Below, one piece after another: positions 21,582 to 64,000 of a stretch of DNA of 64,000 nt. The notes under the pieces are model-generated. The model had not been told where the DNA came from, searched no databases, and saw nothing but the letters and a program-made list of their open reading frames with translations. The stretch is from Cytophaga sp. FL35 (GTDB lineage Bacteria; Bacteroidota; Bacteroidia; Flavobacteriales; Flavobacteriaceae), in the NCBI RefSeq assembly GCF_014349235.1, contig NZ_JACSOH010000004.1, forward strand, positions 69,307 to 133,306, in the 5' to 3' direction. Position numbers and translations under genes: made by a program. The first letter of the stretch is position 1. Each line of letters begins with the position of its first letter.

Positions 21582-21679
21582 ACAAACATTCTTAATCGAG
21601 TTTATCCGTCTTTCAAAGAAGTTTGAACCCTAACTTACAGAAGTCTATCTAATTTAGATTTGGTTTTTAATCTATACCT

Positions 21680-22108
21680 ATGGAATTCAATACTAAGTTT
21701 ATTACTAGATGCTTGGCAGTATGTTTTCTTATCCTTTCCGGAACGGTTTCTAGGGGGCAAGAAAAAGAAATGACCAAAATGCAGCAGGTCATGGCCCAGC
21801 ATGATGAAGTTATGGATGAAATGCCCAAACTTTCCAAACTGATCAACCAATTACAGACCAAGGCTAATGCTTCCTACAAAAAAGAAAAGTATGAAAATGC
21901 CATTAGCGATTTAAAGTTGGCAAACAAGTCCATGATGAACTGGATGGCAAACTTTGGAAAAAGGTTTGAAGCCGATGAAATGATGAAAGGCAAAGAACTC
22001 ACAGAGGAAAAGAAAAGATGGCTCTTGGAGGAAGAGAAAAAAGTGGCCTTATTAAAAGAAGAAATTGAAATTAGTATTTCCCAAGCGGAAAGAGTATTGG
22101 GCAATTAA
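21680..22108 (+). CDS. small secreted protein of unknown function (tandem paralog B)
   Basis: Signal peptide. MQQVMAQHDEVMDEMPKL / KSMMNWMANFGKRFEADE are paralogous to 21165..21581. Confidence 0.5.
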   Translation: MEFNTKFITRCLAVCFLILSGTVSRGQEKEMTKMQQVMAQHDEVMDEMPKLSKLINQLQTKANASYKKEKYENAISDLKLANKSMMNWMANFGKRFEADEMMKGKELTEEKKRWLLEEEKKVALLKEEIEISISQAERVLGN

Positions 22109-44540: not shown

Positions 44541-47000
44541 TTGAGCCGGTTCCTAGTCCCTTTTCTTATGTTATGTACCTATGGCTTTTCCCAAAACATC
44601 AACTTTGACCAGTTGGGCAAGGAGAAATGGCTGCGCTATAATGGCGGTATTGCGGCCAATGGTGTGTATTATGATGGAACTGCCAATAGACAGGCTTTTA
44701 CCTATTATCTTACCGGCAGCCTCAATTTTAATGTGGCGGGCGTGTACAGCATACCGCTATCCTTTACCTACTCCAACCAAGAATTTAATTTTCCCAATCC
44801 GTTTAAGTTCAACAGGTTTAGTCTGCACCCATCCTATAAATGGGCCACTGCACATATTGGGGACGTAAGCATGACCTTTTCGCCCTATACCCTTTCCGGA
44901 CACCAATTTACAGGGGGCGGTTTTGATCTGAACCCGGAAGGAAAGCTTCAGATAAGTGCCATGTACGGTAGGTTTCTAAGGGCCACGGAATACAACGAGG
45001 AAGAACCTCAAGCATTAACGGCCTACCAAAGAATGGGATATGGCGTAAAGACCGCCTATGATTTTGATTTTATGAAACTGGGAGTGATTCTTTTTAAGGC
45101 CAATGATGAAGAAAATTCCCTAAAAGAACCCTTTCCCGTAGAATTGGGACTTGCCCCTAAGGACAATGCCGTTCTTTCCTTTGAGTCCATTTTCAAACTT
45201 TTTGACAAAGCTAGCATTCGTATGGAATATGCCATTTCCGGGGTTACGGAAGATACCCGTTTAACGGAAAACAGGCCTACGGCCGGGTTGCTTTCCTTTC
45301 TTTTGGAGGAAAACATCAGCACCCAATATTACAATGCCCTAAACGCCTCCTTGGATTACCCAGCCGGAAACGGTAGTTTGGGCGTGGGCTATGAACGTAT
45401 AGACCCGGATTACAAAACGCTTGGGGCCTATTATTTTAATAACGACCTGGAAAACGTTACGGTAAATGCGAGTCAGTCCATTTTTGAGAACAAGTTGAAC
45501 CTTAACGTGAATGCAGGTTTGCAGCGCGACAATCTTAACAATGCTAAATCTTCGGACCAGCAACGCGTGGTAAGTGCCATCAATGCCAATTACACGGCTT
45601 CGGAACGTTTGGGCATCAACGCTAGCTACTCCAATTTTCAGTCATACACCAATATCAGGGACCAATTTGATTATATCAACCAAGTGGGGGCGTATGACAA
45701 TGTAGACACCCTTAATTACCGGCAGATTTCCCAGAATGCCAATTTGGGCCTTAACTATATCCTTAAAAAGACCGAAACCAAACAGCACAGCACCAACCTC
45801 AACCTGGTATATCAAAACAGTACCAATCAGCAAGAGGGGGAGACCATTGAAGGCGGTGAAAATTCTTTTTATAACGGGGTAGCTTCCTATACATTGGGGT
45901 TTCCACAACAGGCACTAAATGTGTCCTTGGCCGGAAACGTTTCTTACAATACCGTAGCTGAAGACAACAACCTTATTCTTGGGCCTACTTTGGCCATTGG
46001 AAAACAATTTTTTGACAAAAAACTGCGGAGTAATTTTTCGAGTTCCTACAACAGTTCCTTTGCCAATGGCGAACAACAGAACAACGTGCTCAACTTTAGG
46101 CTGGGAAGCAATTACGCCCTGTACAAAAAACACAATCTGAACCTCAACTTTTTAATGTTGTTCAGAAACTCGGAGCTCAATACCGGTCGCGACCTAACCA
46201 TCACCTTTGGCTATAGCTATGCCTTTGATAATTTTAAGTTGGACATTGACCCGGGCAGCAGAACTCCCAACGAGCGTGACCCTAGAAATAAAGAAAACAC
46301 TTTAAGCTTCCGCTATAGAAACGTAACCTACAGCGGCACCATTCCCAATTTAAACGAGCAGCTTACCAGTGTATATACAAGTGCTCCGTTTAGGAATATT
46401 CCACTATTTAAAAAAGACGAACTTAAAATTCTATTGACGACGGTTAAAGAGCAAAAAAGAGAGGACAGGTACAAAGAAAGTGCACTTACCTTTTTGGCAG
46501 AGCTGTACGCCTTTGGCGATTTTGAAAAAGTGTACGAAGAAGCTTTATATAACGTTATTTCAAATATTCAAGACGATATGAAAAAAATTGATATGGCCTT
46601 GGAGAACCTGTTTGTAGCCAAGAAACTGGAAGTAGACGAGCACCCGTTGCATAATAAAACAGAGGAGAATTATTCCCAAAGAGATAAGGCTTTGGCTCCT
46701 CGATATCAGGCCTTAGTTGCAGAACAACAAACCCGATTGGAAAAATTGGTGGGCCATCGATGGATGGAAACCCAATTCGCAGAATTTACCAGTATGGAGG
46801 ACATTGAAAAGGGAACCGGATTTTTAAAAGAATTTAAAAAAGACTATGCATTAAAGTCTTTTGAAATGTTTGAGAAAACAGAAAATGTAAACCAACTGGA
46901 AACCTATTTGGAAAACGAAATCATTGATTTCTATTACAAAAAATCATTGAACTTGGTGAATCCGGAGTTTTTTGAGCTGAAGTATATTAATAGGAACTAG
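44541..47000 (+). CDS. large secreted protein of unknown function (beta-rich N-terminal half, helical C-terminal quarter)
   Basis: Signal peptide MSRFLVPFLMLCTYGFSQ. 819 aa. Confidence 0.5.
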   Translation: MSRFLVPFLMLCTYGFSQNINFDQLGKEKWLRYNGGIAANGVYYDGTANRQAFTYYLTGSLNFNVAGVYSIPLSFTYSNQEFNFPNPFKFNRFSLHPSYKWATAHIGDVSMTFSPYTLSGHQFTGGGFDLNPEGKLQISAMYGRFLRATEYNEEEPQALTAYQRMGYGVKTAYDFDFMKLGVILFKANDEENSLKEPFPVELGLAPKDNAVLSFESIFKLFDKASIRMEYAISGVTEDTRLTENRPTAGLLSFLLEENISTQYYNALNASLDYPAGNGSLGVGYERIDPDYKTLGAYYFNNDLENVTVNASQSIFENKLNLNVNAGLQRDNLNNAKSSDQQRVVSAINANYTASERLGINASYSNFQSYTNIRDQFDYINQVGAYDNVDTLNYRQISQNANLGLNYILKKTETKQHSTNLNLVYQNSTNQQEGETIEGGENSFYNGVASYTLGFPQQALNVSLAGNVSYNTVAEDNNLILGPTLAIGKQFFDKKLRSNFSSSYNSSFANGEQQNNVLNFRLGSNYALYKKHNLNLNFLMLFRNSELNTGRDLTITFGYSYAFDNFKLDIDPGSRTPNERDPRNKENTLSFRYRNVTYSGTIPNLNEQLTSVYTSAPFRNIPLFKKDELKILLTTVKEQKREDRYKESALTFLAELYAFGDFEKVYEEALYNVISNIQDDMKKIDMALENLFVAKKLEVDEHPLHNKTEENYSQRDKALAPRYQALVAEQQTRLEKLVGHRWMETQFAEFTSMEDIEKGTGFLKEFKKDYALKSFEMFEKTENVNQLETYLENEIIDFYYKKSLNLVNPEFFELKYINRN

Positions 47001-47123
47001 GGAGTTAGGAGTTAGGAAAATAAAAAAATGCATTTGGTAGAATTAAAATTTGAACTTTTAAAATTAGTCAGAAAAATGCGGCCCATATGGAATACTGCAT
47101 ACTGTCCACTGAAAAAGAATTGA

Positions 47124-47486
47124 ATGTATAACCAACTAACAGCATATAAAACGGCGTTTTCATTAGCTATGGAGGTCTTTGAAATGACAAAAGAATTTCC
47201 AAAAGAGGAGCGCTATTCCCTAACCGACCAGATTAGGAGAAGTTCCCGTTCCGTTTGTGCCAATATTGCTGAAGGTTACCGAAAAAGGAGGTATGTAAAA
47301 CATTTCGTTGCCAAACTTACAGACGCCGATATGGAAAATACAGAAACCCAAGTTTGGTTAAAGTTTTCATTGGAATGCCAGTACATAAAAGAAGAGACCA
47401 AAGTAGAACTGTACAACAAGACCGTAGAAGTAGGGAAATTGCTTGGTTATATGATCAATAATCCTAAAAAATTCTGCAGCAAATGA
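47124..47486 (+). CDS. four-helix-bundle protein (23S-rRNA-intervening-sequence protein family)
   Basis: 120 aa. AYKTAFSLAMEVFEMTKEFPKEERYSLTDQIRRSSRSVCANIAEGY signature of the TIGR02436-like family. Its stop overlaps the next ATG (ATGA). Confidence 0.8.
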   Translation: MYNQLTAYKTAFSLAMEVFEMTKEFPKEERYSLTDQIRRSSRSVCANIAEGYRKRRYVKHFVAKLTDADMENTETQVWLKFSLECQYIKEETKVELYNKTVEVGKLLGYMINNPKKFCSK

Positions 47487-50400
47487 TATTTAAAACCATA
47501 AAACATATCATCCAAACACTGCAAAACCGCATCCAGCAAACGGCAAAACTGAGCGCTGCTCACTGCCTACTGCAATCTGCAATCTGCCTACTATTTTTAA
47601 CTTTTAACTACACAATCGCCACCGCCCAATCTTTTCCCGTACAGGTAATTCCGCAAGTGACGCCACCGCCACCTATATATTTTTCGGAATACGCCAACGA
47701 GAGTACGGTTAACAGTCCGTTGCGGGTACAGTTGATCTTAAACGATTTTGAGATTGTCAATCGGGAAGTCCGCCTAAGAGTTTCCTTTGAGGGTAGTGGC
47801 ATCAGTTTTCAAAGTAAGGACCTGGTTACCGGCGCTTCGCCCCTATTTTTGGAAGGAGGCGTTCCCCTGGTACTTACCAACGTAGAGCTGGCACCCTATT
47901 TTAGATATGAAAACCTCAACGGTATTTCGGGTAATGTATATGGCAATGCCATCCCTGAAGGTGCCTATAACTTCTGTTTTGAGGTATTCGATGTGCTTAC
48001 TGGTAGTCGTCTGTCCCAAAAATCGTGTGCCATTAGTGTAGTCTTTCAGAACGAACCGCCTTTTTTGGTATCCCCCAGAAATAAGACCAATGTAGAAGAA
48101 ATCAATCCGCAGAACATTGTATTTCAGTGGACGCCCAGACACGTAAATGTTAGCAATGTAGAATACGAGCTTAGCATTGTGGAGATTTGGGACACGCAAG
48201 TGGACCCCCAACAGGCCTTTTTAAGCTCGCCTCCCGTTTTTCAGACCGTTACCAATGCCACTACCTATGTATACGGACCGGCAGATCCGCTCTTCCTATC
48301 CGGAAAAAATTATGCTTGGCGGGTACAGGCAAAGGCGAAACAAGGGTTGGAAGAGGTGGGCCTTTTTGAAAACCAAGGCTATAGCGAAATCTATTCCTTC
48401 AGTTATGCCGGCAGTTGTGATTTGCCCTTGGGCATTAACCATGAGGTTAAGGGGAGCACCAACGCCAATATATTTTGGGACGATTTCTCTACCGACGTAC
48501 CGGAATACACCCTGCGTTACCGACAAAAAAACGTGGAGGGGGCGGAGTGGTTTCCGGCCAAAACCACCAGTAATATTCTCACCCTTTGGAACTTAAAACC
48601 GGGCACCACTTACGAGTACCAACTCAGTAAAAAATGTAACACGGTGTACAGTGACTGGAGCTTGTTAAAGGAGTTTACTACCACCTTGGAGTTTGAGGAA
48701 GAAAGCGTTCTGGATTGTGGCATAGCCCCCAATATTAGCGTCACCAATAAAGACCCCCTACCAAATATGGCATCGGGTAGCATTTTTAAAGCGGGCGACT
48801 TTCCGGTAACGGTGATGGAAGTAAGCGGTAGCAATGGCCGTTTTACGGGTAAGGGCTTTGTAAAAATGCCCTACCTAGAGAATCTTAAGGTGTATGTAGA
48901 GTTTACCAATATTCTGGTAAATACAGATCAAGAAATGGCGGAAGGCTCTGTAAGAACCGCCTATGACCCAACTTGGCGAAATATACTGAATACGGCTGAT
49001 TTGGCCCAGCGGGCCGGGGAGTTTGTGGATGCCGTAGGAGATTTGGGAGAAAGCGTTGACGATATTCTTGAAGATGTATTTAACACAGACGACGAAGACG
49101 AAGAGAATGCCCCACCGGTAGATCCAGAAATGGAAGAAGGTGAAACAGTGCCCCCTTCTACCGAAACTTCTGGCGAGAATGAGACAGACACGAATACCTC
49201 GGACGCATCAAATGATGCTGACAACGAAGAGTCATCATCTGGTTCCACAAGCAACGATAGTAATGGCTCTACGCCGAACACAGGTGGTTCAACAGGTGAT
49301 AATTCTTCTGACAACCCTAATCCTGACACCAATGAAGAAGATGAGCAAGAGGTAGTAATAGTTTACAATGGTTCTGAATATAGAAATGGTGATATCTTGG
49401 AAATTAAATATTCCAACAACTCAAGTAAACATTTATTCACCTTAGCAAATCACGCCAAAGATTGTAAGATAGATTGGAGCACACATGCTGACATGAATGA
49501 ATTAGCAGCAACGTCCTTTGCGGGAAGTGGGCATCAAATAGAATTAAATTTAAATAATAAAGAGTATTTAACACTACAAGCAGAATATTGGACTCCTTCT
49601 GACAGTTATCCAGAAGGAGAATCACAGAAAATAAGAATTGTAATAAAAATTTTACGTGAGCAATTTGACTTAAAAGAATTATATGCAAAACATAGTAAAA
49701 GAAGAATTGCAAAATCTGGACAAACCTTATATTTACTTGACGACACTGGTCTTTCTGAAAGTTCCAAATTTAAAAAAGTTGAATTTGGGGTTAAAATTGA
49801 CCCTAAATTAAAAGAATCTGAAATACACGATTTAAATCTTGGTTGGTATTATGGTTCAAACAAGTCTGTCTCAAAAGATGAGGCTAGTTTAAATATCTCT
49901 AGAAATATTAGGCTTAAAGAGGGGTTTGATAATACTACTGTAAAAGCTGGATACCCTAAAGCTAAAGAAAAAGATATCAATGTTAAGTGGGAAGACCAAT
50001 ATGATGTCTCTACAGATTACTTAACCAAATTCTCAAAAATACTAACTTTTTTAGAACAGTTTAATAGAATTTCTTCAAAATTTAAATCCGTTTTACCCTG
50101 CGAGGCTAGTATTTTAAATGATTTTAACGCCCTCGTAGGTGCGAAAAAAATAGCTTTTAAGTTAAGAACCTATAATGAAGAAGACGATGAAAGTAGAGAA
50201 TTATATGACGTGTTACAAACTAACTTGAAACTACAATCCTCAAGTTTAGCCGATTTGCAATGTGGTAAGGATTTAGGTTATTTAGGCGTTTCATTAGGAA
50301 AGTTTTACGGTGGGATGAGTTTAGGCGCGAATATAAATTTTAGATATTCTTTAAAAACTAAAAATGAAACGTTAGAGCGGAAAACTGTTCCCGAAATATC

Positions 50401-50719
50401 TGGTGGATTCGTATTAACAACTGATTTTGGTTTTAAAACTGCCGAAATCATTGATGAATACTTCTTCTTAAAAGCTGCTATTGAAATTAAGGCAGGTACT
50501 AAAACAGTTTACCCCTTTAAAGGGAAAAATTATCAAATAGGCAGTTATCTCTATTTAGGTAAAACGAATTTTGTAGTCGATGGTTATATTGATACTTGGC
50601 TAACAGGAAGGGAAGATTTCAATTTCAAGTACTTAATTTATGATTCTCAATGGGAAAGCGATCAAAGACTAATTATCGACTTGAAAGCACAAGACATTTA
50701 TTTAGAAACAGGTAATTAA
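47483..50719 (+). CDS. 1078-aa secreted protein with fibronectin-type-III-like domains, an acidic low-complexity linker and a compositionally foreign (AT-rich) C-terminal domain
   Basis: Signal peptide. FN3-like motifs (YAWRVQAKA, YEYQLSKKC...DWS). D/E/S/T/N-rich linker at about 49040-49340. GC drops to about 28% from about 49340 to the stop. Confidence 0.6.
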   Translation: MIFKTIKHIIQTLQNRIQQTAKLSAAHCLLQSAICLLFLTFNYTIATAQSFPVQVIPQVTPPPPIYFSEYANESTVNSPLRVQLILNDFEIVNREVRLRVSFEGSGISFQSKDLVTGASPLFLEGGVPLVLTNVELAPYFRYENLNGISGNVYGNAIPEGAYNFCFEVFDVLTGSRLSQKSCAISVVFQNEPPFLVSPRNKTNVEEINPQNIVFQWTPRHVNVSNVEYELSIVEIWDTQVDPQQAFLSSPPVFQTVTNATTYVYGPADPLFLSGKNYAWRVQAKAKQGLEEVGLFENQGYSEIYSFSYAGSCDLPLGINHEVKGSTNANIFWDDFSTDVPEYTLRYRQKNVEGAEWFPAKTTSNILTLWNLKPGTTYEYQLSKKCNTVYSDWSLLKEFTTTLEFEEESVLDCGIAPNISVTNKDPLPNMASGSIFKAGDFPVTVMEVSGSNGRFTGKGFVKMPYLENLKVYVEFTNILVNTDQEMAEGSVRTAYDPTWRNILNTADLAQRAGEFVDAVGDLGESVDDILEDVFNTDDEDEENAPPVDPEMEEGETVPPSTETSGENETDTNTSDASNDADNEESSSGSTSNDSNGSTPNTGGSTGDNSSDNPNPDTNEEDEQEVVIVYNGSEYRNGDILEIKYSNNSSKHLFTLANHAKDCKIDWSTHADMNELAATSFAGSGHQIELNLNNKEYLTLQAEYWTPSDSYPEGESQKIRIVIKILREQFDLKELYAKHSKRRIAKSGQTLYLLDDTGLSESSKFKKVEFGVKIDPKLKESEIHDLNLGWYYGSNKSVSKDEASLNISRNIRLKEGFDNTTVKAGYPKAKEKDINVKWEDQYDVSTDYLTKFSKILTFLEQFNRISSKFKSVLPCEASILNDFNALVGAKKIAFKLRTYNEEDDESRELYDVLQTNLKLQSSSLADLQCGKDLGYLGVSLGKFYGGMSLGANINFRYSLKTKNETLERKTVPEISGGFVLTTDFGFKTAEIIDEYFFLKAAIEIKAGTKTVYPFKGKNYQIGSYLYLGKTNFVVDGYIDTWLTGREDFNFKYLIYDSQWESDQRLIIDLKAQDIYLETGN

Positions 50720-51165
50720 TGCTATATAAAATTTTCAACAGATTATTTCAATTTTTCTTATTTACCATTCTATTCGTTCTATTCATTAGCAGTATAAGAG
50801 TAGTACTTAACAATATAAAATATTTTGGAATTATTAAATCTGGGAAAATAATAGATATAGATTATACCAGAGGTTCCAAATCGACTGATGAGAGAGGCAC
50901 CTATATGAATACGATATTAACGGAGGGTAATAAAGATACGGTTTATGGAGGAAGTCAGAATCAATATAAAAGGGGAGACAAAATAAAATTTCGCTTTCGA
51001 GGAATAGGAGGAAATATAATATTTGAAGTAAACGGATTGAAAGTACGCTCCAAATATGATACTTGGGATTATCTTTCTCCTATTATTCTACTTTTTTCAT
51101 CATTTATGATTTACAAAATATTAACTCATTGGTTTATACCATTTTTAAATAAAATCAGAAAATGA
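50719..51165 (+). CDS. 148-aa two-TM membrane protein, AT-rich, translationally coupled (TAATG) to the preceding gene. Candidate immunity or accessory protein.
   Basis: N- and C-terminal hydrophobic helices. About 25% GC. Overlapping stop/start on both sides. Confidence 0.45.
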   Translation: MLYKIFNRLFQFFLFTILFVLFISSIRVVLNNIKYFGIIKSGKIIDIDYTRGSKSTDERGTYMNTILTEGNKDTVYGGSQNQYKRGDKIKFRFRGIGGNIIFEVNGLKVRSKYDTWDYLSPIILLFSSFMIYKILTHWFIPFLNKIRK

Positions 51166-52439
51166 GTAAAATAATTTTTTTATCAATCTTTTTCATTTTT
51201 TACGGACTGTATTCACAATCACAGAATATTGATGGCATATGTTCAGAAGCTGATTTATTCGGGATTCCTGTGGATAATAACCAAATTACATATCATAAAT
51301 ATGCGCCAGTTCTACAACTAAAAAAGAGGTACGCTTCATTTGAAGAAGTTAAAAATCGAACACCCGAAGAATTACTAATTTCTCAAATGTCAGTACAAAA
51401 TAATAAATGGCTAGCTTATAATTTTGAAAATGATATCAAATGGAAAGAAGAGCAATTTAAAAGAATCACATCTCAAGACCCCGAGAAAAATTACATCGAA
51501 TTAATCCGAAAAATAACATACCAAATAAACGGTACAAATTATTCCATTTTAAGGTTGAAAATTTATGATGACAGAAAAAGTAAACCCGCCACTTTAAGCC
51601 TAATGGCAAGTTGTAATAAAGGGAAATGGGCCTTCGTTAAAAATAAGACACGATCTCCGTTAGAATTTTTAATGTCCAACTTAAACCTCCAATATCTTGA
51701 TAAGACCTTAGAAAATGAAGATTCGGATAATTCAAGGTTCAATGAATTAATAAAATCTTCATGGAGGTCGAACCGATTAAGTCCTACGAATATCTATAGA
51801 ATAATCGGTGATAACATGCTGGTTAACGACGGTACTCTTGATAAGGTTTATGAAAGAGCCAACCCTTCCTCTCAACAAACAGAATTTCAAGAATACCATG
51901 AAAATTTTGTATTCACTAAAAACACAATAAACGTAAACTATCTTATCCCCCTAACTGATCAAGAATTCTGTTACTATTTTCCAAATCAACTATCACAATT
52001 TGATTCGAAAAGTATAGCTCAGCTTATTGAATACTTAGAAAACGAAAACATAAACCAAGAGGGTAAAAAACCAACTATTTTCCCTATTCATAAATTTAGA
52101 TACCGACAGGACAATAAAGTGTTTGTAATTGTCAAATATTCCATTAGGCTTGAGAACGAAGAAGCCAAAATAAAAACAGAGGTATTTGATTATAATAGAG
52201 GTAGATACAAAGTACAGAATGAGATAAATCCAGTAAATAGTAATTTAAAATATTTGCTGAATGTTGCTAAATCAGATTTTATAATACAAATATCAAATGG
52301 TGAAAACAATGCAGATTACCCCGAAGTAAATGCTTTAAAACCCGAAACTAAGGACGCCAATGAAATTCTTAACCTGAAGGAACTCATACAAGTAATTACC
52401 AATAATAGTTCAAGTTTGGAAAAGTATTTAAACAATTAA
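51162..52439 (+). CDS. 425-aa secreted protein of unknown function, AT-rich, coupled (ATGA) to the preceding ORF
   Basis: Signal peptide MSKIIFLSIFFIFYGLYSQ. No recognisable domain. Same low-GC block. Confidence 0.45.
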   Translation: MSKIIFLSIFFIFYGLYSQSQNIDGICSEADLFGIPVDNNQITYHKYAPVLQLKKRYASFEEVKNRTPEELLISQMSVQNNKWLAYNFENDIKWKEEQFKRITSQDPEKNYIELIRKITYQINGTNYSILRLKIYDDRKSKPATLSLMASCNKGKWAFVKNKTRSPLEFLMSNLNLQYLDKTLENEDSDNSRFNELIKSSWRSNRLSPTNIYRIIGDNMLVNDGTLDKVYERANPSSQQTEFQEYHENFVFTKNTINVNYLIPLTDQEFCYYFPNQLSQFDSKSIAQLIEYLENENINQEGKKPTIFPIHKFRYRQDNKVFVIVKYSIRLENEEAKIKTEVFDYNRGRYKVQNEINPVNSNLKYLLNVAKSDFIIQISNGENNADYPEVNALKPETKDANEILNLKELIQVITNNSSSLEKYLNN

Positions 52440-52540
52440 CATTTAAATTCTTGTTTCCCCGCTAGCGCGGGCGTCACGCTCGTGCCAGCGGCAGCAAAAA
52501 GTAAAGGCAAGGATAATTATAATGAGCATTAAATAATTAC

Positions 52541-52646
52541 AAAACACCCCTGTAAAAACCGGTTTGGTTTTTACTGTCCCCTGTAGGGGACAATAACACG
52601 TAACAATTCCCCCTTAGAAGGGGGGGCCGCCGCCGCAGGGCGGGGG
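52541..52646. repeat. GC-rich structured repeat, copy A: aaaacacccctg + hairpin 1 (aaaaacc/ggttttt) + hairpin 2 (gtcccc-tgta-ggggac) + hairpin 3 (ccccc-ttagaa-ggggg) + cgcagggcggggg
   Basis: Shares an ordered set of motifs with 53154..53248. 60-70% GC in a roughly 40% GC genome. Confidence 0.55.
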
Positions 52647-52730
52647 ATGTATTCACCCCTGAATGAGGTGACGTTGTGCCAACATCGGGCGAGCAGAAGC
52701 GATGGTGGGGGTGTTAATGATGTAAGTACC

Positions 52731-52765
52731 AAAACACCCTTAAAGTCCCCTTTAGGAGACAATTA
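52731..52765. repeat. partial degenerate third copy of the same repeat (aaaacaccc...gtcccct-ttag-gagac-aat), abutting the DUF559 start
   Basis: Matches the leader + hairpin-2 portion of copies A and B with two substitutions. Confidence 0.35.
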
Positions 52766-52772
52766 AAAAGTA

Positions 52773-53147
52773 ATGAAAAACAGAATAATACCATATAACC
52801 CAAAATTGAAGGAACTGGCAAGGCAGCTACGCCAAAACAGCACCTTGGCAGAGGTATTATTATGGCAAAAAATAAAGAACAGGGCCTATGGGGTGCAGTT
52901 CTATAGGCAAGTGCCCATATTGGAATATATAGTGAACTTTTATTGTCATGAACTCATGTTTGCCATCGAGGTAGACGGTAACAGTCATGATCACAAATAT
53001 GAATATGATGCCGATAGACAGGCCAAACTAGAGGAGCAAGGCGTAAAATTTTTAAGGTTGGGAGACCATGAAGTAAAAAAAGAAATGTTCAGCGTACTGT
53101 TAAAAATTGAAGAAACCATAAATCAATTAAAGAACGTTAGGAATTGA
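52773..53147 (+). CDS. DUF559 (Vsr/restriction-endonuclease-like) domain protein
   Basis: 124 aa. Pattern L...QN.T.AE..LW..I...G.QF.RQ.PI..YIV.FYC.EL..AIEVDG..H ... QG.KFLR matches the DUF559 endonuclease-domain family. Confidence 0.8.
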   Translation: MKNRIIPYNPKLKELARQLRQNSTLAEVLLWQKIKNRAYGVQFYRQVPILEYIVNFYCHELMFAIEVDGNSHDHKYEYDADRQAKLEEQGVKFLRLGDHEVKKEMFSVLLKIEETINQLKNVRN

Positions 53148-53153
53148 TACTAT

Positions 53154-53248
53154 AAAAACACCCCTGTTTTGGCTTTTCCAAAACTGTCCCCTCAAGGGGA
53201 CAATTAATATTCCCCCTTTGAAGGGGGTGCTCGCAGGGCGGGGGGGGG
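53154..53248. repeat. GC-rich structured repeat, copy B: aaaaacacccctg + hairpin 1 (ttttgg/ccaaaa) + hairpin 2 (gtcccc-tcaa-ggggac) + hairpin 3 (ccccc-tttgaa-ggggg) + cgcagggcggggggggg
   Basis: Same element order as copy A. The hairpin-1 stem is fully base-swapped but still pairs. Ends 18 nt before the 1603-aa gene. Confidence 0.55.
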
Positions 53249-53265
53249 TGTAAAAAATAAAATAG

Positions 53266-56200
53266 ATGAAAAACAACTACCCACATATTTTACTTTTCAT
53301 TCTATGCAGCCTGTTTTGCAGTTGCTTCACATTTGCTTATGAAGGCCCCATAAGCCTAGCTGATAGCACTCTTGTAAAAACAACAGATTCTGTTCTTACC
53401 AAAGAAACCCTGCCACAATCTGCCGAGGCCTTTGATCCCATGGCCCATTGGGCAAAAGAAAAAAACAAAAAAGTGACGGTTGCAGACGCTACTACTGCTG
53501 GGTATAGAAGTTTTCCAGAACTCGACTCCTATACCAACAATCTTTACCTGCCTCCGAGCAACGGTTTGGCTGAGTTTACACCAGAATATGTGCAAAACCT
53601 GTTTAAGATAGATAATAATACGCAAGAGCTTTTAAACGCCGGTAAAGAGGTATTTGATATTATCGATAGGGAAAAGCGTTTTATCAATATCATTGGGGGC
53701 CAAGAAATTATAGAACTGCCCGTAGGTATTACGCAACCTATTTCCGAGCACTCCTTTATCTCCTTGGGCATCGTAAGTATGGAATATCATACCAACTACA
53801 CTGTGGTTGATCTGTTCGCCAAGATAAAACTGGCAGAATTAGGAGGTGAAGAACTCTTTTTTGCCGCCAATAACGTTAAAATTTCCCGTGAAGGCGGTAT
53901 TTATGATGAAGCCACTTTAAGTCTTTTAGGCGATTTTCCTATAAGCATGAACGGTGGACAGTGGTTGGTCACCCTCAAAGGGGGAAAGGGAGAACGTGGC
54001 AAAGGAGACGGACAAACCTATGTGACCATCAACTGCGAGGGCAAGGTAAAAGAACTGGCTTTTAACGCAGATGTGCGGGTAGCCAAAACCGTGGCCGTTC
54101 CCTTAAATGAAGACGGTTCGTTAAAATTTCCGGCAAAGACGGAACCGGGCACCGGAGAAAACCCTGTTGGTAACGATAGCTACGTGGGGGCTAATATTAA
54201 ACTGCAAACGGCCACATTAGAGGATATGCTCTTTGAGTTAGACCTACCTTTCTTTGAACTTAAAGCGTTACCTCGTTGGGGCTTTAAAATGGAAAAAACG
54301 GTTCTGGACCTAAGTGACACCAAAAACGCCGAGGGAATGCTATTTCCTGATATTTACCGTACTCAAGGTTTGCTACAGGGAAATGAAAACCTATGGCGGG
54401 GCTTTCACTCCAAGGAAGTGCGGGTCATGTTGCCCCCTGAGTTTAAAAAGAAAGGTTCCGATAAACGTATCTTCGTTGGGGCGCAAAATCTGTTTATAGA
54501 CAATTTTGGGGTCTCAGGAGACTTTTATGCCACCAATGTTTTGGACATTAATGAGGGAGATGCCAGTAAATGGCAGATTTCTGTAGACTCTATTGGCGTT
54601 GATTTAAAGGTAAATAGATTTATTAAGGCTGGCTTTAACGGGGATATTGTACTGCCCATTAGCGATCAAAAATCTACGGGTGGCACATTGGCGTATAAAG
54701 GATTGATTACCGCAGATCAATATTACTCCGTTAACGTTGAGGCTACTGACGATGTAAGTTTTGATGTTTTTAAGGCTCAGGCAAAAATCTACAAGGGATC
54801 TTATGTAAAATTAGAAGTAGAAAACGATCGCTTCTACCCAGAGGCCAATCTTACCGGGCAAATGGCCTTTAGTGCACAACAAAAAAATCAATTAAACGAA
54901 GCTGAAGGCGATGATGGTGTAGAATTGGAATTTGACGGACTTTCGTTTGAGAATTTTAAAATACAGACTCGTGAGCGACCTTATCTTTCCATTGGCCGTG
55001 CCGGTTTCAAAGATGATATTAAACTGCCCAAACTCGCAGGTTTTGAATTGGGCTTCTACGATGTAGAAATTACCTCCGATGAGAACGACAACGCCACCCT
55101 GGCACTTAATTGTTATGTAAACCTAGACGATTCCGGTATTCATGGCGATGTTGGCTTAGAAATCAATGGGGCCTTGGAACAGGGTGATTTATTAAAATGG
55201 CGCTACCAAGGAATAGAGGTTACCGATATTGAGATTGATGTAAAACGAAAGTCCTTTGAGTTTTACGGAAAAGCATCCTTTTTTAAGGACAATCCTATTT
55301 ATGGCAAAGGCTTTTCTGGGGAATTGCAGTTATATGCCGAAGATTTGGGCATAGAAGTAGGGGCCAGAGGTCTTTTTGGGGCCGTAGATGGATACCGTTA
55401 TTGGTTCGTTGATGGTCATGGGCGACCGACAAAAAATAACAATACGAATTTCACCATTTTCGACATTGGCGGCGGTGTTTACCACCACATGCGAAAAGCA
55501 GGCATGGATGAAACTGCTACCTCCCTATCCGGAATCAAGTACCAACCGGACATCAATACTTCACTAGGTTTTAAGGCTTTGGCCGCTTTTGAAATAAAAA
55601 GTGGGGCGGCCTTTACGGCCTTGGCAGGTATAGAAATCGCTTTTAACAGCCAAGCGGCTGGTGGCGGTGTTAGTAGATTAGGCTTCTACGGTGCTGCCAT
55701 GTTAATTCAGGGCAAAAGTGGTGGTGGCAATCCGCAAACCCCATTCGGCACCGTGGATCAAATGCAGCAAACCGTTTCCGCAAAGGAACAGGCATTGGGC
55801 AATTTCCATGAGCTCTCCATTGATAAAGAGGGTCTTAAATATTTTGCCGATGAAGTATTTCCCGAATTGCTGACAGGAGAAGAACTATTTGCAGCGCAAG
55901 TAGCCATCGATTTTGATTTTAGAAATAGGGCCTACTGGGGGCTGCTAGATGTTTATCTAAATGCTGGAGCCATCAGGGGCGAAGGTGAAAAGAACCATTT
56001 AGGTAGATTGGAGTACTACAATTCGCCTGACGATTGGTACATTTATGTTGGTACCCCGACCCACCGTTTTGGACTTGCAGATATACCCATTGGTCCGTTC
56101 TTGGCGAGCATCAACATGTATTTTATGACGGGCACCATATTACCAGACCCCGCCCAGCCGCCACAGAATGTAATAGATATTCTGCATTTATCTGGCAATG

Positions 56201-58077
56201 AGTTAGAATTCGGAAGAAACTTTGACCAAGAACTGGCAAGAGGAACAGGCTATGCCTTTGGGGCCAAATTTCAGCTGGGTATGGGCTTTGACTGGGGCCT
56301 TGTCTATGCCAGTGTAAGTGCAGGGGCCGGTTTCGATTTAATGATGCGTGATTTTGGTGATGCACATTGTAAAGGAAAGGAAGGACCAATAGGAATGGAC
56401 GGGTGGTACTCCACCGGCCAAATGTATGCCTATCTACAGGGTGAAATAGGTGCCAGAATCAAAGTTTTTGGCATTAAAAAAGACATCCCCATTCTATCGG
56501 CTGGCATAGCCGTTTTAGCACAAGCTCAACTTCCAAACCCCTGGTTCATTAAAGGTTACGCCGGTGTTGATATCAAAGTTCTAGGACTGGTTAATATACA
56601 TACCCGATTGAAGGTTATTATAGGGGAAGAGTGCGAAATTATTGGAAAAACAGGTTTGCAAGATGTGGTTATGATTTCTGACATTACCCCAAGGGACGGG
56701 TTGACCGATGTGGATGTTTTCGATGCTGTACAAGTAGCATTTAATGCTCCAATTGGCGAGCCTATCTATATTGAGGAGGAAGGAGGCAAAAAAACCTATA
56801 GAATTAGCTTGGATGAACTTATCGTAAAAAATGCCAATGGAATTATCGAAGGTTCTCAAGAACTCAATGAAAATAGGGATCTACTAACATTCAACTCTTC
56901 AGAAGTTTTACCTCCGGAAGATGAAATCACTGTTATAGCAAAAGTTTCATTTGAAGAGAAATCAGGAGGAAATTGGATAGTTGTCACCGAAAACGGCTCT
57001 CCCGTTATTGAAGAAAAAACGGTAACCTTCACAACCGGTGATGCTCCTAGAAAAATCCCTATTAAAAACATAGAATACATGTACCCTATGGTTGAACAAC
57101 AATATATGTTGCCGAAGGAATTTTCGAAAGGGTTTGTACAATTATATAAAGGACAAGATTATTTATTTGGTAATGGCCTAAGTGATGAACTCTACTTTAT
57201 TGACCAAAACGGAACTAAAACAAAAGCCGATTTCAGTTACAACAAAGCTGATAAACGACTCAATTTCTCCATTCCCAGTTTGGATAAAAAAAGCTCCTAC
57301 ACCTATGCTCTGATTACCTTAAACCCAGGTGATATTGAAGAAAATCAAGTAATGACAGCGGTTGAGTTCAATCAGATTTCTGAAGACCTTGAAATATCAA
57401 ATAACACCATTGTAGGGAACGCTAGCAATGGTGCTTTTATAAGCAGACTAAATTTTAATTTCAACACAAGTGAGCACAATACCTTTAAACAAAAAATACA
57501 ATCGATTAAAGCGAACAAATATGTAAATCAAAGCTTATCCAATGCAGCGCAACTAGCGGTTTACACCAAAGACTATGAGCCTTTTGAGCTTGCTGAAATA
57601 GCACCTTCAAGGTTTAATGGAGGGGTCCCATTAATAATTGGCAATGCTCTCAATAACAATAGGTATTTTAAAAACGAGATTTATCCAACGATATATGAAA
57701 ACTATCCCTTGGACAACCGTTTTGAAGTTCAAAGAGACGCTGCAATATATGGTCTTCCACCAACTAGACCCATCTCCGTTTCGCAAGTTTATGTTACCTA
57801 TGCTCAAAATCAACCTGAAAACAGTTTTCTAAAACAACGTTTTCCTTTTTACTGGGATATTGCTCAAGTATACCGAGAAGATTTCTATCACTTGCAATAT
57901 GAAATTAGTAATTTCTATGATGACCCGGAAAACCCGAAAAGAAAAGATTTTGAATACATAATTTTTTCAAGATTTCCCTATATAAATAACGAGACCTACC
58001 AGGTAGAATTTAAATATCACCTTCCACATTCCAACAACGGCAATAAGGTGATATTTGATTACAAAAATGAATTTTAA
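53266..58077 (+). CDS. 1603-aa secreted protein of unknown function
   Basis: Signal peptide MKNNYPHILLFILCSLFCSCF. Single uninterrupted ORF. Its stop overlaps the next start (TAATG). Confidence 0.6.
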   Translation: MKNNYPHILLFILCSLFCSCFTFAYEGPISLADSTLVKTTDSVLTKETLPQSAEAFDPMAHWAKEKNKKVTVADATTAGYRSFPELDSYTNNLYLPPSNGLAEFTPEYVQNLFKIDNNTQELLNAGKEVFDIIDREKRFINIIGGQEIIELPVGITQPISEHSFISLGIVSMEYHTNYTVVDLFAKIKLAELGGEELFFAANNVKISREGGIYDEATLSLLGDFPISMNGGQWLVTLKGGKGERGKGDGQTYVTINCEGKVKELAFNADVRVAKTVAVPLNEDGSLKFPAKTEPGTGENPVGNDSYVGANIKLQTATLEDMLFELDLPFFELKALPRWGFKMEKTVLDLSDTKNAEGMLFPDIYRTQGLLQGNENLWRGFHSKEVRVMLPPEFKKKGSDKRIFVGAQNLFIDNFGVSGDFYATNVLDINEGDASKWQISVDSIGVDLKVNRFIKAGFNGDIVLPISDQKSTGGTLAYKGLITADQYYSVNVEATDDVSFDVFKAQAKIYKGSYVKLEVENDRFYPEANLTGQMAFSAQQKNQLNEAEGDDGVELEFDGLSFENFKIQTRERPYLSIGRAGFKDDIKLPKLAGFELGFYDVEITSDENDNATLALNCYVNLDDSGIHGDVGLEINGALEQGDLLKWRYQGIEVTDIEIDVKRKSFEFYGKASFFKDNPIYGKGFSGELQLYAEDLGIEVGARGLFGAVDGYRYWFVDGHGRPTKNNNTNFTIFDIGGGVYHHMRKAGMDETATSLSGIKYQPDINTSLGFKALAAFEIKSGAAFTALAGIEIAFNSQAAGGGVSRLGFYGAAMLIQGKSGGGNPQTPFGTVDQMQQTVSAKEQALGNFHELSIDKEGLKYFADEVFPELLTGEELFAAQVAIDFDFRNRAYWGLLDVYLNAGAIRGEGEKNHLGRLEYYNSPDDWYIYVGTPTHRFGLADIPIGPFLASINMYFMTGTILPDPAQPPQNVIDILHLSGNELEFGRNFDQELARGTGYAFGAKFQLGMGFDWGLVYASVSAGAGFDLMMRDFGDAHCKGKEGPIGMDGWYSTGQMYAYLQGEIGARIKVFGIKKDIPILSAGIAVLAQAQLPNPWFIKGYAGVDIKVLGLVNIHTRLKVIIGEECEIIGKTGLQDVVMISDITPRDGLTDVDVFDAVQVAFNAPIGEPIYIEEEGGKKTYRISLDELIVKNANGIIEGSQELNENRDLLTFNSSEVLPPEDEITVIAKVSFEEKSGGNWIVVTENGSPVIEEKTVTFTTGDAPRKIPIKNIEYMYPMVEQQYMLPKEFSKGFVQLYKGQDYLFGNGLSDELYFIDQNGTKTKADFSYNKADKRLNFSIPSLDKKSSYTYALITLNPGDIEENQVMTAVEFNQISEDLEISNNTIVGNASNGAFISRLNFNFNTSEHNTFKQKIQSIKANKYVNQSLSNAAQLAVYTKDYEPFELAEIAPSRFNGGVPLIIGNALNNNRYFKNEIYPTIYENYPLDNRFEVQRDAAIYGLPPTRPISVSQVYVTYAQNQPENSFLKQRFPFYWDIAQVYREDFYHLQYEISNFYDDPENPKRKDFEYIIFSRFPYINNETYQVEFKYHLPHSNNGNKVIFDYKNEF

Positions 58078-60170
58078 TGAATATACGCCTATTTCAACAT
58101 ATAATTCCTTTTCTACTTTCGGTGACTCTTCATAGCGGGCCCATCTTAGCGCAAAGCACTGAAAACGACCAATGGCAACTTGCCATTAAGCATCGAGTAA
58201 AAGATGACGGTATTTGCATTAGGTGGGCAGTAAATACTGTGGAAGCATGGCAGGCCGGCGTACAATATGGTTTTATCATTGAAAGGACATTGATAAACTC
58301 TACCTCGTCCAATACCAAAAACAATGAAAAACTATTGTTAACGCCCACCCCCTTAAAACCAAAGCCGGAACAGGAGTGGCAATCGGCAGCGATGAACAAT
58401 GACATGGCTGCCGTAGCAGCACAGGCTATTTATGGCGACACCTTTTCAGTGAACAACCAAGAAGAGGAAAGCAGGTTTATGCAGGTAATCAATATGGCGT
58501 CTGAGAGAGAGCAGAGATTCGGTTTTTCGTTATATGCCATGGATCGCGATTTTAGCACCGCACAACTTGCAGGGTTTGGTTTTGTAGACAAGGATATTGA
58601 AGCAGGTGCTACTTATTTGTACCATATAAAATTAGCCTCTCCAACGCAGGATGACAGTCAAAAACTGGAGTATGGGTTTGTTGCACATACGGATGAAATA
58701 GAAGAGCTACCCAAACCCAGGGATTTTGTGGTATACTATTACAATGATGCCTTTCTATTGATATGGGAATACGATTCTTACTTACCCTATTACAACTCCT
58801 ATGATATTGAACGTTCTGAGAACGGTCAAGATTTTACGAAAATCAATAAAGTGCCTATAACAAAACTGGCCAGCACCGATGTTAGTGGGATATCTTACAC
58901 AGACAGCATTCCAGTTTACGACAAAAAGTTTTGGTATCGAATAAAAGGGCATTCCTATTTTAATGACGTGGGTCCAGTTTCGGATACTATGAGCGTAACC
59001 GCTTACAAGCAGCTGTTGGTGGCACCGGAAATAACCCAAAAGGATATTATCTCCGATAAAGAAGTAAAGTTACGATGGTCTTTTGCCAAGGACGAAGCTT
59101 GGAAAGTTACCAATTTTGACCTTCTCAGGGCAGATGATGCCATTGGTCCCTATACTACCGTACAATCAAATTTGAGCCAAAATGCGCGGGAAGCTTATTA
59201 TAATAAGCTAACTGAGAGTAATTATTTTAGGGTTAGGGCAAAAGGAATAGCTGGGGATGTACAAGATTCGTCTCCCGTTTTGATTCAACCCATAGACTCC
59301 ATTCCTCCTGCACAACCCAGAGGATTGAAAGGTACAGTAGATACCTTGGGAATTGTCAAAATCTCTTGGGAACCGAATACAGAACTCGACCTAAAAGGCT
59401 ATGACGTTTTCCGCTCTAATACTAAAAATCAAGAATTTACGCGCTTGAATAAGAATCAAATTACCGGTCAGTCGTATACGGATACTATCAATATAAAGTC
59501 CTTTAACAAAGAGGTGCTCTACCGTATACAAGCGGTAGATAATCGTTATAACGCCTCGATTCCTTCGGATACTCTGGTAATGAAAAGGCCTAACCGAGCA
59601 GCACCTTTGAGCCCTTTGTTTTCGGATTACAGAATTGCACAAGACTCCGTTCATCTCCATTGGCTACCCAGCACCTCTGAAAATATTCAGAAACAAATGC
59701 TTTTTAGAAGTTTTATAGACCAACCTGAAAATTGGGAAAAAATTTTTGAGACGGAGACCAATAACCTTAGTACGTTTATTGACCTAAACATAGAGGCTGA
59801 CACAAAATATGCATACACCCTAATAGCGGTTAACGAGTTTGGCATTGAAAGTAATCCATCTCCCCCATTGGGTCTTGTTACAGGAAAAGAATTAACAAGA
59901 GAAAGCATTAAAGGTATTTATGCCCAAGTAAATAGGGAGTTACACCTTATTGATATTAGTTGGAGAGGTGACTTAACCAATGTATCGGAACTTAGGTTGT
60001 ACCGTAAGACGGAAACGTCTCCTTTTAGGCTATATGAGACCTTGGCACCAGATTCCAAAAAATATACGGATACCCGTTTACAAGTTGGCACTTCCTATGG
60101 CTATGCCATACAAGCTATTTTTAATGATGGTACCATAAGTACCTGGGAAGAAATCATGGTAACCTATTAA
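58077..60170 (+). CDS. 697-aa secreted protein with multiple fibronectin-type-III-like repeats
   Basis: Signal peptide. Repeated about 90-aa modules ending in Y(R/F)(V/I)(R/Q)A..G..S.PS motifs. Confidence 0.6.
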   Translation: MNIRLFQHIIPFLLSVTLHSGPILAQSTENDQWQLAIKHRVKDDGICIRWAVNTVEAWQAGVQYGFIIERTLINSTSSNTKNNEKLLLTPTPLKPKPEQEWQSAAMNNDMAAVAAQAIYGDTFSVNNQEEESRFMQVINMASEREQRFGFSLYAMDRDFSTAQLAGFGFVDKDIEAGATYLYHIKLASPTQDDSQKLEYGFVAHTDEIEELPKPRDFVVYYYNDAFLLIWEYDSYLPYYNSYDIERSENGQDFTKINKVPITKLASTDVSGISYTDSIPVYDKKFWYRIKGHSYFNDVGPVSDTMSVTAYKQLLVAPEITQKDIISDKEVKLRWSFAKDEAWKVTNFDLLRADDAIGPYTTVQSNLSQNAREAYYNKLTESNYFRVRAKGIAGDVQDSSPVLIQPIDSIPPAQPRGLKGTVDTLGIVKISWEPNTELDLKGYDVFRSNTKNQEFTRLNKNQITGQSYTDTINIKSFNKEVLYRIQAVDNRYNASIPSDTLVMKRPNRAAPLSPLFSDYRIAQDSVHLHWLPSTSENIQKQMLFRSFIDQPENWEKIFETETNNLSTFIDLNIEADTKYAYTLIAVNEFGIESNPSPPLGLVTGKELTRESIKGIYAQVNRELHLIDISWRGDLTNVSELRLYRKTETSPFRLYETLAPDSKKYTDTRLQVGTSYGYAIQAIFNDGTISTWEEIMVTY

Positions 60171-60180
60171 TATAGTTAGT

Positions 60181-63100: not shown

Positions 63101-64000
63101 GGCCTAGCGGAGGGAGACTATTCCATTTTGGTTACGGATGCCAATGGGTGTGTTCTAAACGAATCCTTTATCATTACTGAACCTGGCGAACTTATAGTTA
63201 CTGCATCCCAAACGGAAGTCATTCCATGTAGCGGAGATGCCTTCGGTGAAATTGCCGGACAAGTTACAGGTGGCGTAGCGCCTTATATTCTGGAGTGGTT
63301 TCAGCAAATAAATGGTTCTGACATTAGGCTGGCGGAAGATTCCAATCTTTTGGCAGATTTAGGTCCTGGAAGCTACTTCCTTAGAGCTACCGATGCTAAT
63401 GGAATTAACGCGGATTCTGGCATAGTGCTCATCACTGAACCGGATTTGCTAACGGCTTCGGTACTGAGCACCACCTCTATCTTATGTAGCGGGGAAGCGA
63501 CAGGGGCTGTAGAAGTTACTTTTTCGGGTGGAACGGCTCCCTATGAATTTTCTTGGAGCAATGGTGATTCCAGCCTCAACTTGACCAATGTACCTTCTGG
63601 AGAATATACCCTTTTCATATCTGATGTGAATGGCTGCTATACAGAACTTACAGCGGTAGTAGAAGCGGCACCAGATGCCTTACAAATTAGCAATAGAGAC
63701 CTCCTCAATGTTTCGGAATACAATGCTAATGACGGTAGTATATCATTGGAATTATCGGGAGGGGCCTTCCCTTTCGATATAGAGTGGACTCAATTATCCA
63801 ATGGGCTGGCAATAGGCGACCAAGAAAATATTTCCCGTCTTGCGGCCGGAAGGTACCAAGTTACCATTTCAGATGATAATGGTTGCCGACTGACGGAAAT
63901 TTTTGAAATTACCCAGCCTGATATTGTTGAGGAAACAATCATACAACCGGCTTGTGAAGGAGATACAGATGGAAGCATTTCCCTACTCGTAAATCAGGGC
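60181..64000 (+). CDS. 5' part of a giant SprB-repeat cell-surface adhesin (gliding-motility / T9SS cargo-like). Continues beyond the window.
   Basis: Hand-translated open frame from the ATG at about 60181 to the window end. Signal peptide MKNLLSFLVLYCTLGGIF. More than 12 tandem copies of the SprB-repeat signature (C.G..(N/D)G.I.....GG..PY.Y.W). Not in the ORF track because no stop falls within the window. Confidence 0.65.

Follow-up and report, generated by a model that had tools for sequence, protein, structure and literature searches.

We analysed a 64,000-nucleotide (nt) stretch of contig NZ_JACSOH010000004.1 from Cytophaga sp. FL35, hereafter termed the window, and focus here on a short segment at positions 52440-53265 in which a gene encoding a DUF559 protein is enclosed by G/C-rich hairpin repeats. 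The source organism is a Maribacter-like flavobacterium, and DUF559 is a large nuclease family. The gene in question is an open reading frame (ORF) of 124 amino acids (aa) on the forward strand (52773-53147), and is the only DUF559 ORF within the 64 kb. It is preceded by a 425-aa gene with its stop at 52439 and followed by a 1603-aa gene starting at 53266, with no other gene between these two. Residues 11-116 match Pfam family PF04480 (DUF559; E = 3.2e-28, 98.2 bits, with the gathering score of 20.6 as cut-off), and the protein also matches the solved Neisseria DUF559 protein, 3HRL, at the level of sequence (E = 1.5e-11). When the AlphaFold model of the ORF (pLDDT 87.8) was searched with Foldseek, 3HRL again ranked first (E = 2.4e-6, TM 0.83), ahead of the Vsr-fold homing endonuclease I-Bth0305I, which was matched through its catalytic domain (3R3P; E = 3.4e-4), and Vsr itself (1VSR/1CW0) matched more weakly than either. 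The product is accordingly modelled as a nuclease of the PD-(D/E)xK type with a Vsr-type alpha/beta fold. The first-pass annotation of this DNA had described a lone DUF559 ORF between a low-GC cassette and the 1603-aa gene, a description with which Pfam, 3HRL, the predicted fold and the gene map all agree.

Composite repeats lie on both sides of the ORF, as that annotation had also stated: element A (52544-52650, with an extension to 52714) and a decayed single unit upstream, and element B (53158-53251) downstream, all read on the forward strand. Elements A and B share their orientation, so that the flanking composites are direct rather than inverted in the window, and they share a single order of modules, namely a C-rich tag (ACACCCC), a mini-hairpin whose sequence varies between copies while its pairing is kept, the hairpins GTCCCCTnnAGGGGAC and TTCCCCCTTnGAAGGGGG, a small GC hairpin (CGCAGGGCG), and a G-rich tag, GGGGG(A)TGT, which is complementary to the C-tag. 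In element A, the C-tag occupies 52544-52550, the variable mini-hairpin 52552-52574, and the two hairpins 52576-52591 (GTCCCCTGTAGGGGAC) and 52607-52624 (TTCCCCCTTAGAAGGGGG); the small GC hairpin comes next, and the G-tag, GGGGGATGT, follows at 52642-52650. The extension of element A (52651-52714) adds a further hairpin (52653-52671) and a second G-tag, GGGGGTGT (52707-52714), which faces the ORF, and is conserved in a 94%-identical relative with the same flanks (locus L148). Element B consists of a C-tag (53158-53164), a mini-hairpin (53166-53184), the hairpins GTCCCCTCAAGGGGAC (53186-53201) and TTCCCCCTTTGAAGGGGG (53210-53227), and a G-tag (53240-53251), from which 14 nt separate the 1603-aa start codon. 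The decayed unit, ACACCC-TTAAA-GTCCCCTTTAGGAGAC-AATT (52734-52764), stands 8 nt 5' of the start codon of the nuclease ORF; its counterpart in L148 has the intact form ACACCCCTAAAGTCCCCTCAAGGGGAC, and a single unit before the start codon is also found in Maribacter and Pseudozobellia leaders. Motifs of the A/B type are absent from the rest of the 64 kb, for which chance predicts 0.01-0.5 matches.

The left edge of the repeat block, immediately after the low-GC cassette, is formed by a GC-rich hairpin module that we call M0 (CCCCGCTAGCGCGGGCGTCACGC..., 52457-52495, forward strand). Module M0 also precedes repeat elements in Maribacter polysiphoniae (locus L020, ~16858) and lies after DUF559 in Pseudozobellia (locus L021, ~10402); the interval 52457-52540 was considered as a unique orthologous spacer, and this was rejected because M0 recurs in other loci. 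Abrupt changes in GC content had been claimed at both edges of the segment, and that claim stands for 52440, where GC rises from 0.28 to 0.51, but not for 53265, where the step is mild (~0.39 to ~0.43). A 63-aa ORF on the minus strand (52571-52762) is made up entirely of repeat DNA, overlaps both element A and the decayed unit, and matches no Pfam family, in agreement with its earlier dismissal as spurious. A 77-aa 'gene' in the public annotation of M. polysiphoniae (L020, 9710-9943) is likewise wholly repeat DNA, situated 5' of DUF559, and is likely spurious.

Substitutions in the protein suggest that the window's copy of the nuclease is probably inactive. Some 35 alignment columns are invariant across the 120 closest homologs, and the window protein carries two changes that are unique among these 120: Asn at position 55, within the 'IVDF' strand, where 119 of 120 have Asp, and Tyr at position 44, where 119 of 120 have His. 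From the alignment with 3HRL, and as in other Vsr-fold enzymes, we take the Asp of the 'IVDF' strand to be the metal-binding residue. E66, D68, and H72 are kept, and the catalytic motif as a whole (Asp of the 'IVDF' strand, Glu-x-Asp-Gly, His) is thus no longer intact. The relative represented by L148 retains both Asp55 and His44, and the repeat hairpin just 5' of the start codon, which is broken in the window, is intact there. As dN/dS against L148 is low overall (0.15), decay of the window's copy would be recent; we infer decay from which sites have changed, and not from the rate of change.

Comparison with close relatives reveals three states of the junction upstream of the 1603-aa gene: no spacer, a solo repeat, and the repeat-DUF559-repeat arrangement of the window. 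M. polysiphoniae (L020) has the same gene cluster, including an 817-aa gene that is 74% identical to the gene at window positions 44541-46997, and a 1639-aa gene that is 71% identical to the 1603-aa gene. At its junction 5' of the 1603-aa ortholog stands one composite repeat of the A/B architecture, and DUF559 is absent. In a metagenomic relative (L142), the 1603-aa ortholog of which is 66% identical, there is no spacer at all, as the upstream gene overlaps the start codon, and the junction contains neither repeat nor DUF559. In both M. polysiphoniae and M. polysaccharolyticus, a repeat-DUF559-repeat arrangement is found one junction upstream, between the 817-aa gene and a gene with fn3 domains. 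Homologs that are 80% (Pseudozobellia thermophila) and 77% (M. cobaltidurans) identical lie in unrelated neighbourhoods, and the closest DUF559 homologs together occupy four unrelated sites. These comparisons show that the segment 52440-53265 is not present or absent as a unit: the gene with its repeats is a position-variable module, but a repeat can remain without the gene, and what comes and goes is the gene, usually with one more copy of the repeat. The related suggestion of a selfish, small mobile or homing-like module is largely supported by the empty orthologous site and the unrelated sites of homologs, and is qualified by the repeats, which are not private to this locus. The edges of the window's segment carry no target-site duplication, a feature for which the first-pass annotation had proposed a search, and the sole duplicated DNA there is that of the repeat units themselves.

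The upstream slot occupied by DUF559 in the two Maribacter species is filled in the window by a 120-aa PF05635 gene (23S rRNA intervening-sequence protein, or bAvd-like; 47124-47486, forward strand), which follows the 810/819-aa gene and precedes the 1078-aa fn3 gene, its stop overlapping the start of the latter (ATGA), and around which no GC hairpin flanks were found. Tandem heptamers follow the stop of the 817/819-aa gene, as (CAGTAGG)n/(CAGTGGR)n in Maribacter (L020, 9625-9680; L004, ~3670-3720) and as two copies of GGAGTTA at the same post-stop position in the window (~46985-47010), the position being conserved and the repeat variable.

Repeats of this kind are widely dispersed and far more numerous than the DUF559 gene. 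A scan of metagenome contigs with the 16-mer GTCCCCTCAAGGGGAC returned at least 120 loci, and the unit ACACCCC-TAAA-GTCCCCTCAAGGGGAC emerges as a REP-like element that occurs as singlets and as inverted doublets. Among the matches listed, a tag (ACAyCyCy) and a TAAA-type loop precede the hairpin in 69 of 120 loci, and there are many doublets, of the form tag-hairpin-~20 nt-hairpin-tag, with both orientations represented; about 40% of these matches lack a tag and may be due to chance or to other contexts. In the same set, DUF559 lies within 700 nt at one of the 39 repeat sites that have at least 700 nt on both sides (~3%), and is the only recurrent non-housekeeping neighbour of the repeats; no Y1 transposase is among the recurrent neighbours.

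When approached from the gene, the association is close to universal among the loci examined. At 18 of 18 genome loci from Flavobacteriaceae, Cytophagales and Bacteroidales, DUF559 has C-run/G-run hairpins no more than ~300 nt away, either on one side or on both, and the inverted-repeat score of the flanks is higher for DUF559 (median 11.5) than for 619 control ORFs (8; p = 2.7e-5), with scores of 24-32 in several Bacteroidota loci. The usual layout runs from a hairpin through a short loop and a G-tag, then 13-78 nt, to the ORF, and on through a C-tag and a short loop to a second hairpin; the tag mirrors the hairpin arm, and in several lineages the stop codon falls inside the C-tag. Using a strict triplex-motif detector, which demands a hairpin together with a mirrored third block, we found 74 matches within 300 nt of DUF559 (4.1 per kb), whereas the remaining 234 kb of these loci contained 14 (0.06 per kb), giving an enrichment of about 68-fold. 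The strict motif is present at 26 of 30 DUF559 loci, a sample that spans Bacteroidota, Cyanobacteria, Deinococcus, and alpha-, beta- and gamma-Proteobacteria, including ycjD of Escherichia coli; dinucleotide shuffles predict 0.62 strict matches where 57 were observed. The pairing is also oriented: of 20 loci, 16 have a G-type unit as the closest one upstream, and 17 have a C-type unit as the closest one downstream. Plasmid records, a set that includes some whole chromosomes, were searched by tblastn with the window protein, and 32 records matched at one place each. Ten of these loci were read (from Pseudanabaena, Synechocystis, Picosynechococcus, Deinococcus, Photobacterium, Sinorhizobium, Neisseria, Sphingomonas and Azospirillum), and tag-loop-hairpin units stand beside DUF559 in nine, the Sinorhizobium locus having related hairpins only. 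The question raised in the first-pass annotation, whether other DUF559 copies are flanked by like repeats, can therefore be answered in the affirmative for essentially every locus examined.

Stand-alone GIY-YIG ORFs (~105 aa, PF01541) on flavobacterial metagenome contigs (L122, 9495-9812 and 10641-10964; L078, 2104-2421) are tightly bracketed by their own hairpin-containing inverted repeats of 20-24 nt, unrelated to those of DUF559, and may represent a second kind of repeat-boxed mini nuclease gene. As these ORFs carry other, unrelated hairpin repeats, the pairing of DUF559 with its repeats is specific.

The repeats beside DUF559 resemble the BoxC/PIT repeats, or 'intrastrand triplex motifs' (TM_ECO; Holder et al. 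2015), which are described from E. coli and more than 260 genomes; in E. coli such repeats date back in the literature to the 1990s, they are associated with rearrangements of the genome in their vicinity, and the survey found no mobility or nuclease gene associated with them and does not mention Bacteroidota (PMC4666352). In the shared design, a C-block is followed after a short loop by its complementary G-block and then, after a 3-nt loop (TTA or CCG), by a mirrored G-block; the repeats are intergenic, multi-copy, present in both orientations and often arranged as inverted pairs. This definition fits the DUF559-flanking units of Bacteroidales, Cytophagales, cyanobacteria, Deinococcus and Azospirillum, whereas flavobacterial units differ in having short G-runs with 4-5 triads. 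The DUF559 gene of E. coli, ycjD, was chosen before its flanks were inspected. In the fabI-ycjD spacer of E. coli K-12 (NC_000913.3, ~1351170-1351230; L144), ~170-200 nt downstream of ycjD, lies a unit that exactly fits the TM_ECO/BoxC consensus (PMC4666352). Across E. coli genomes, this ycjD-adjacent unit has a median of 15 occurrences per genome, and no repeat feature is listed near ycjD in the RefSeq feature table.

Discrete insertions are evident in two further lineages. In Deinococcus psychrotolerans, 56-nt inverted repeats (98% complementary) bound DUF559 between paaD and paaZ, the element beginning directly after the paaD stop codon, whereas Deinococcus sp. QL22 has an unrelated paaD-paaZ spacer of 83 nt and no such element. 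In Synechocystis sp. B12, a 516-nt block of repeats and DUF559 on plasmid CP101712.1 (L160, 1799-2316) interrupts a DUF1156 gene, splitting it between residues 196 and 203, and this gene is also frameshifted; a second copy, on CP101716.1 (L161, 3460-4900), lies among fragments of a BREX pglX methyltransferase gene. In both Synechocystis cases the insertion lies in a gene of a defence system, and the plasmids concerned abound in toxin-antitoxin genes as well. Insertions such as these, between the genes of an operon and within a coding gene, would suit an autonomous insertion sequence in which DUF559 acts as the transposase, the palindromes as its terminal inverted repeats, and the ORF-less doublets as miniature inverted-repeat transposable elements mobilised in trans. 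The length of the Deinococcus inverted repeats, the high inverted-repeat scores in Bacteroidota loci and the abundance of ORF-less doublets with the same ends point in this direction. Nevertheless, target-site duplications were not seen at the edges of the window's segment, L152 or L160, the sole ORF is DUF559, the gene is present in single copy per replicon, and a 120-aa PD-(D/E)xK nuclease has no known strand-transfer chemistry. TnsA, the known PD-(D/E)xK case, needs TnsB for strand transfer. Furthermore, as the tags face the ORF in most loci, the ORF lies between repeat units and not inside one, and the composites of the window are direct instead of inverted. On balance we consider an insertion sequence distinctly unlikely.

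The composites could alternatively act as RNA, as a structured leader or trailer of the DUF559 transcript or of the surface-protein operon, with the pattern in the DNA being secondary. Element B has a predicted fold of -49.3 kcal/mol (z = -4.3) in which its two tags form the closing stem, and element A folds into a multibranch structure that is also closed by its two tags, the z-scores of the two composites being -3.8 and -4.3; pairing in the mini-hairpin is maintained despite sequence change, and the gene cluster around the module has a common orientation and shows translational coupling in a relative. Against this, a search of the repeats in Rfam at a permissive threshold returned no family, the best match being a chance one to a CRISPR direct repeat with E of about 1, and a scan for sigma-70 promoters and intrinsic terminators, which is not tuned to Bacteroidota, gave no signal above shuffles. 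Most units lie far from DUF559 and both orientations are represented, palindromic symmetry and mirroring of the tags are what a DNA element predicts, and the E. coli counterpart showed no promoter or terminator activity in published tests (PMC4666352). A primary role as RNA therefore seems very improbable.

The cassette to the left of the repeats is a hypervariable low-GC block (window ~49100-52439, GC 0.27-0.34) that contains the C-terminal half of the 1078-aa fn3 protein together with 148-aa and 425-aa genes, and in which no Pfam domains were found. The first-pass annotation had suggested that the module is a recombination hotspot that brought in this cassette. In keeping with that idea, the repeat block begins at most about 15 nt from the right border of the cassette, and in E. 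coli more rearrangement is reported for triplex-motif loci than for controls (PMC4666352). However, in all three relatives the region that runs from the fn3 protein, at about residue 506-530, as far as the beginning of the 1603-aa ortholog is poor in GC (0.28-0.36), and it is non-homologous between genomes; this holds equally for M. polysiphoniae, which has the solo repeat, and for L142, which has overlapping genes and neither repeat nor DUF559. Cassette variability is therefore independent of the module, and the claim that the module mediated acquisition of the cassette is not supported. The left border is also common to all three, inside the fn3 gene at about residue 506-530 (in M. polysiphoniae, the fn3 protein is homologous only over its first ~506 residues, and small non-homologous genes come next), which fits exchange through conserved flanks. 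We accordingly give the hotspot explanation almost no credence; from these alignments, the block looks like the product of an exchange of a variable C-terminus with accessory genes through conserved flanks.

To the right of the module, the giant genes of the window (53266-64000) are probably part of a cluster for surface proteins of the gliding or adhesin kind, since in L142 (13892-18629) the cluster extends to a giant gene whose product combines SprB repeats with a Por_Secre_tail signal for type IX secretion. No Pfam family was matched by either the 1603-aa or the 819-aa protein. Diverged direct repeats elsewhere in the window (70-79% identical), at 2173-3699 with a spacing of ~580-780 nt and at 21223-22104 with a spacing of ~533 nt, are probably internal duplications within or between adjacent genes.

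Our best explanation, which we hold with middling confidence, is that the window's segment is one copy, lineage-specific in its position and probably now inactive, of a compact nuclease-repeat module. Such a module would consist of a low-copy Vsr-fold nuclease gene embedded between units of dispersed, tagged G/C-rich palindromes, in each of which a C-rich tag is joined through a short TAA-type loop to a C/G hairpin, after the BoxC/PIT 'intrastrand triplex motif' design. The DUF559 nuclease might recognise these repeats and nick or cut DNA at or near them, and recombinational repair between dispersed repeats could then duplicate, delete or move units, and occasionally relocate the gene as well, in the manner of homing-like gene conversion. 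The module in the window would then be a fossil within the surface-protein gene cluster, with its catalytic Asp lost and its adjacent repeat unit decayed. We propose more tentatively, as a possibility of wider scope, that DUF559/YcjD-type Vsr-fold nucleases are the missing partner enzymes of BoxC/PIT or 'intrastrand triplex motif' repeats across bacteria.

Several observations weigh against this explanation. To our knowledge, a lone PD-(D/E)xK nuclease cannot carry out strand transfer, such that the spread of repeats would need host functions. Action of the nuclease on the repeats is suggested only by their co-location, and 30 loci are a modest sample. In the window itself, the strict detector matched none of the repeat units, because mini-hairpins of 12-23 nt are inserted between tag and hairpin, in departure from the three-block BoxC/PIT design with its loops of 1-8 nt. 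Efficient homing into repeats would predict many copies of the gene, and one DUF559 per replicon was found; the edges of the window's segment, of L152 and of L160 are all devoid of target-site duplications. Finally, the DUF559 protein is under strong purifying selection (dN/dS 0.12-0.15, with the invariant columns noted above), and its identity between the window and Maribacter (79%) is close to that of the flanking genes (71-74%), both of which fit a vertically inherited host gene.

These last features are what would be expected under the main rival explanation, in which DUF559 is a host nuclease for very-short-patch mismatch repair of the Vsr type, working with a cytosine methyltransferase encoded elsewhere, and the repeats are unrelated clutter, or insulating or regulatory hairpins that would accumulate around a weakly expressed and potentially toxic gene. 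Purifying selection, a single copy per replicon, divergence similar to that of neighbouring orthologs, and the fold that is common to DUF559 and Vsr, which belong to the same family, would all be accommodated. In addition, Caulobacter VsrA, the only DUF559-domain protein with experimental data, can damage DNA in vivo and is tied to cytosine methylation, with an unlinked methyltransferase (PMC12907096). What a repair gene would not lead us to expect are terminal repeats and variable positions: the position of DUF559 varies among close relatives and orthologous sites can be empty, 56-nt inverted repeats bound the Deinococcus element, and a coding gene is interrupted in Synechocystis. Similarly, the same repeat design recurs in fixed orientation in six or more phyla, at the enrichment given above, and other small ORFs, such as the GIY-YIG genes and the PF05635 gene of the window, lack these repeats. 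A further difference from Vsr-type repair nucleases is that no methyltransferase is linked to DUF559 and that the repeats show no methylation motif in common. Together, the oriented flanking across phyla and the insertion cases argue against a host-repair nuclease, which we regard as unlikely, and they remain compatible with a domesticated role.

The nuclease-repeat module that we favour can be likened to two known kinds of system, and is a member of neither. As in REP/REPIN-RAYT systems, short palindromes that carry a conserved tag at the base of their hairpins are dispersed between genes as singlets and inverted doublets, and a low-copy enzyme gene is flanked by repeats in inverted orientation. 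In contrast to those systems, the enzyme has the Vsr-fold PD-(D/E)xK architecture and is not an HUH/Y1 (IS200-type) transposase, the tag is a C-run mirroring the hairpin arm and not GTAG or CGTC, and the position of the gene is not conserved among genera. Free-standing homing endonucleases include the second-best structural match of the window protein, the Vsr-fold EDxHD enzyme I-Bth0305I (PDB 3R3P), and resemble the module in consisting of a small nuclease ORF, in presence or absence at orthologous sites (here, the window compared with L020 and L142, and D. psychrotolerans compared with Deinococcus sp. QL22), and in signs of decay after fixation. Unlike these, the DUF559 ORF is not in an intron or intein, nor beside a conserved host target gene, and it is single-copy although the repeat that it would seem to target is multi-copy. 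The likeness to both systems is therefore best treated as analogy, given that there is no Y1 transposase, no intron, intein or conserved target gene, no target-site duplication and no evident strand transfer.

No report linking DUF559 or ycjD with such repeats was found in the literature searched, and the general pairing appears to be new, with the instance in the window appearing to be an ordinary decayed member. An oriented pairing that crosses phyla provides both DUF559 and the BoxC/PIT repeats with a candidate partner, and is directly testable in E. coli using YcjD and TM_ECO. For genome annotation, it explains the recurrent spurious small ORFs that are called in such repeat DNA, and indicates that DUF559 genes are position-variable modules rather than fixed housekeeping genes. 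If DUF559/YcjD-type nucleases do prove to be the partner enzymes of these repeats, then they would constitute a second REP-RAYT-like system, built on another protein fold and on triplex- or hairpin-forming G/C palindromes, and this would account for the spread of BoxC/PIT repeats as well as for the genome instability reported at their loci.

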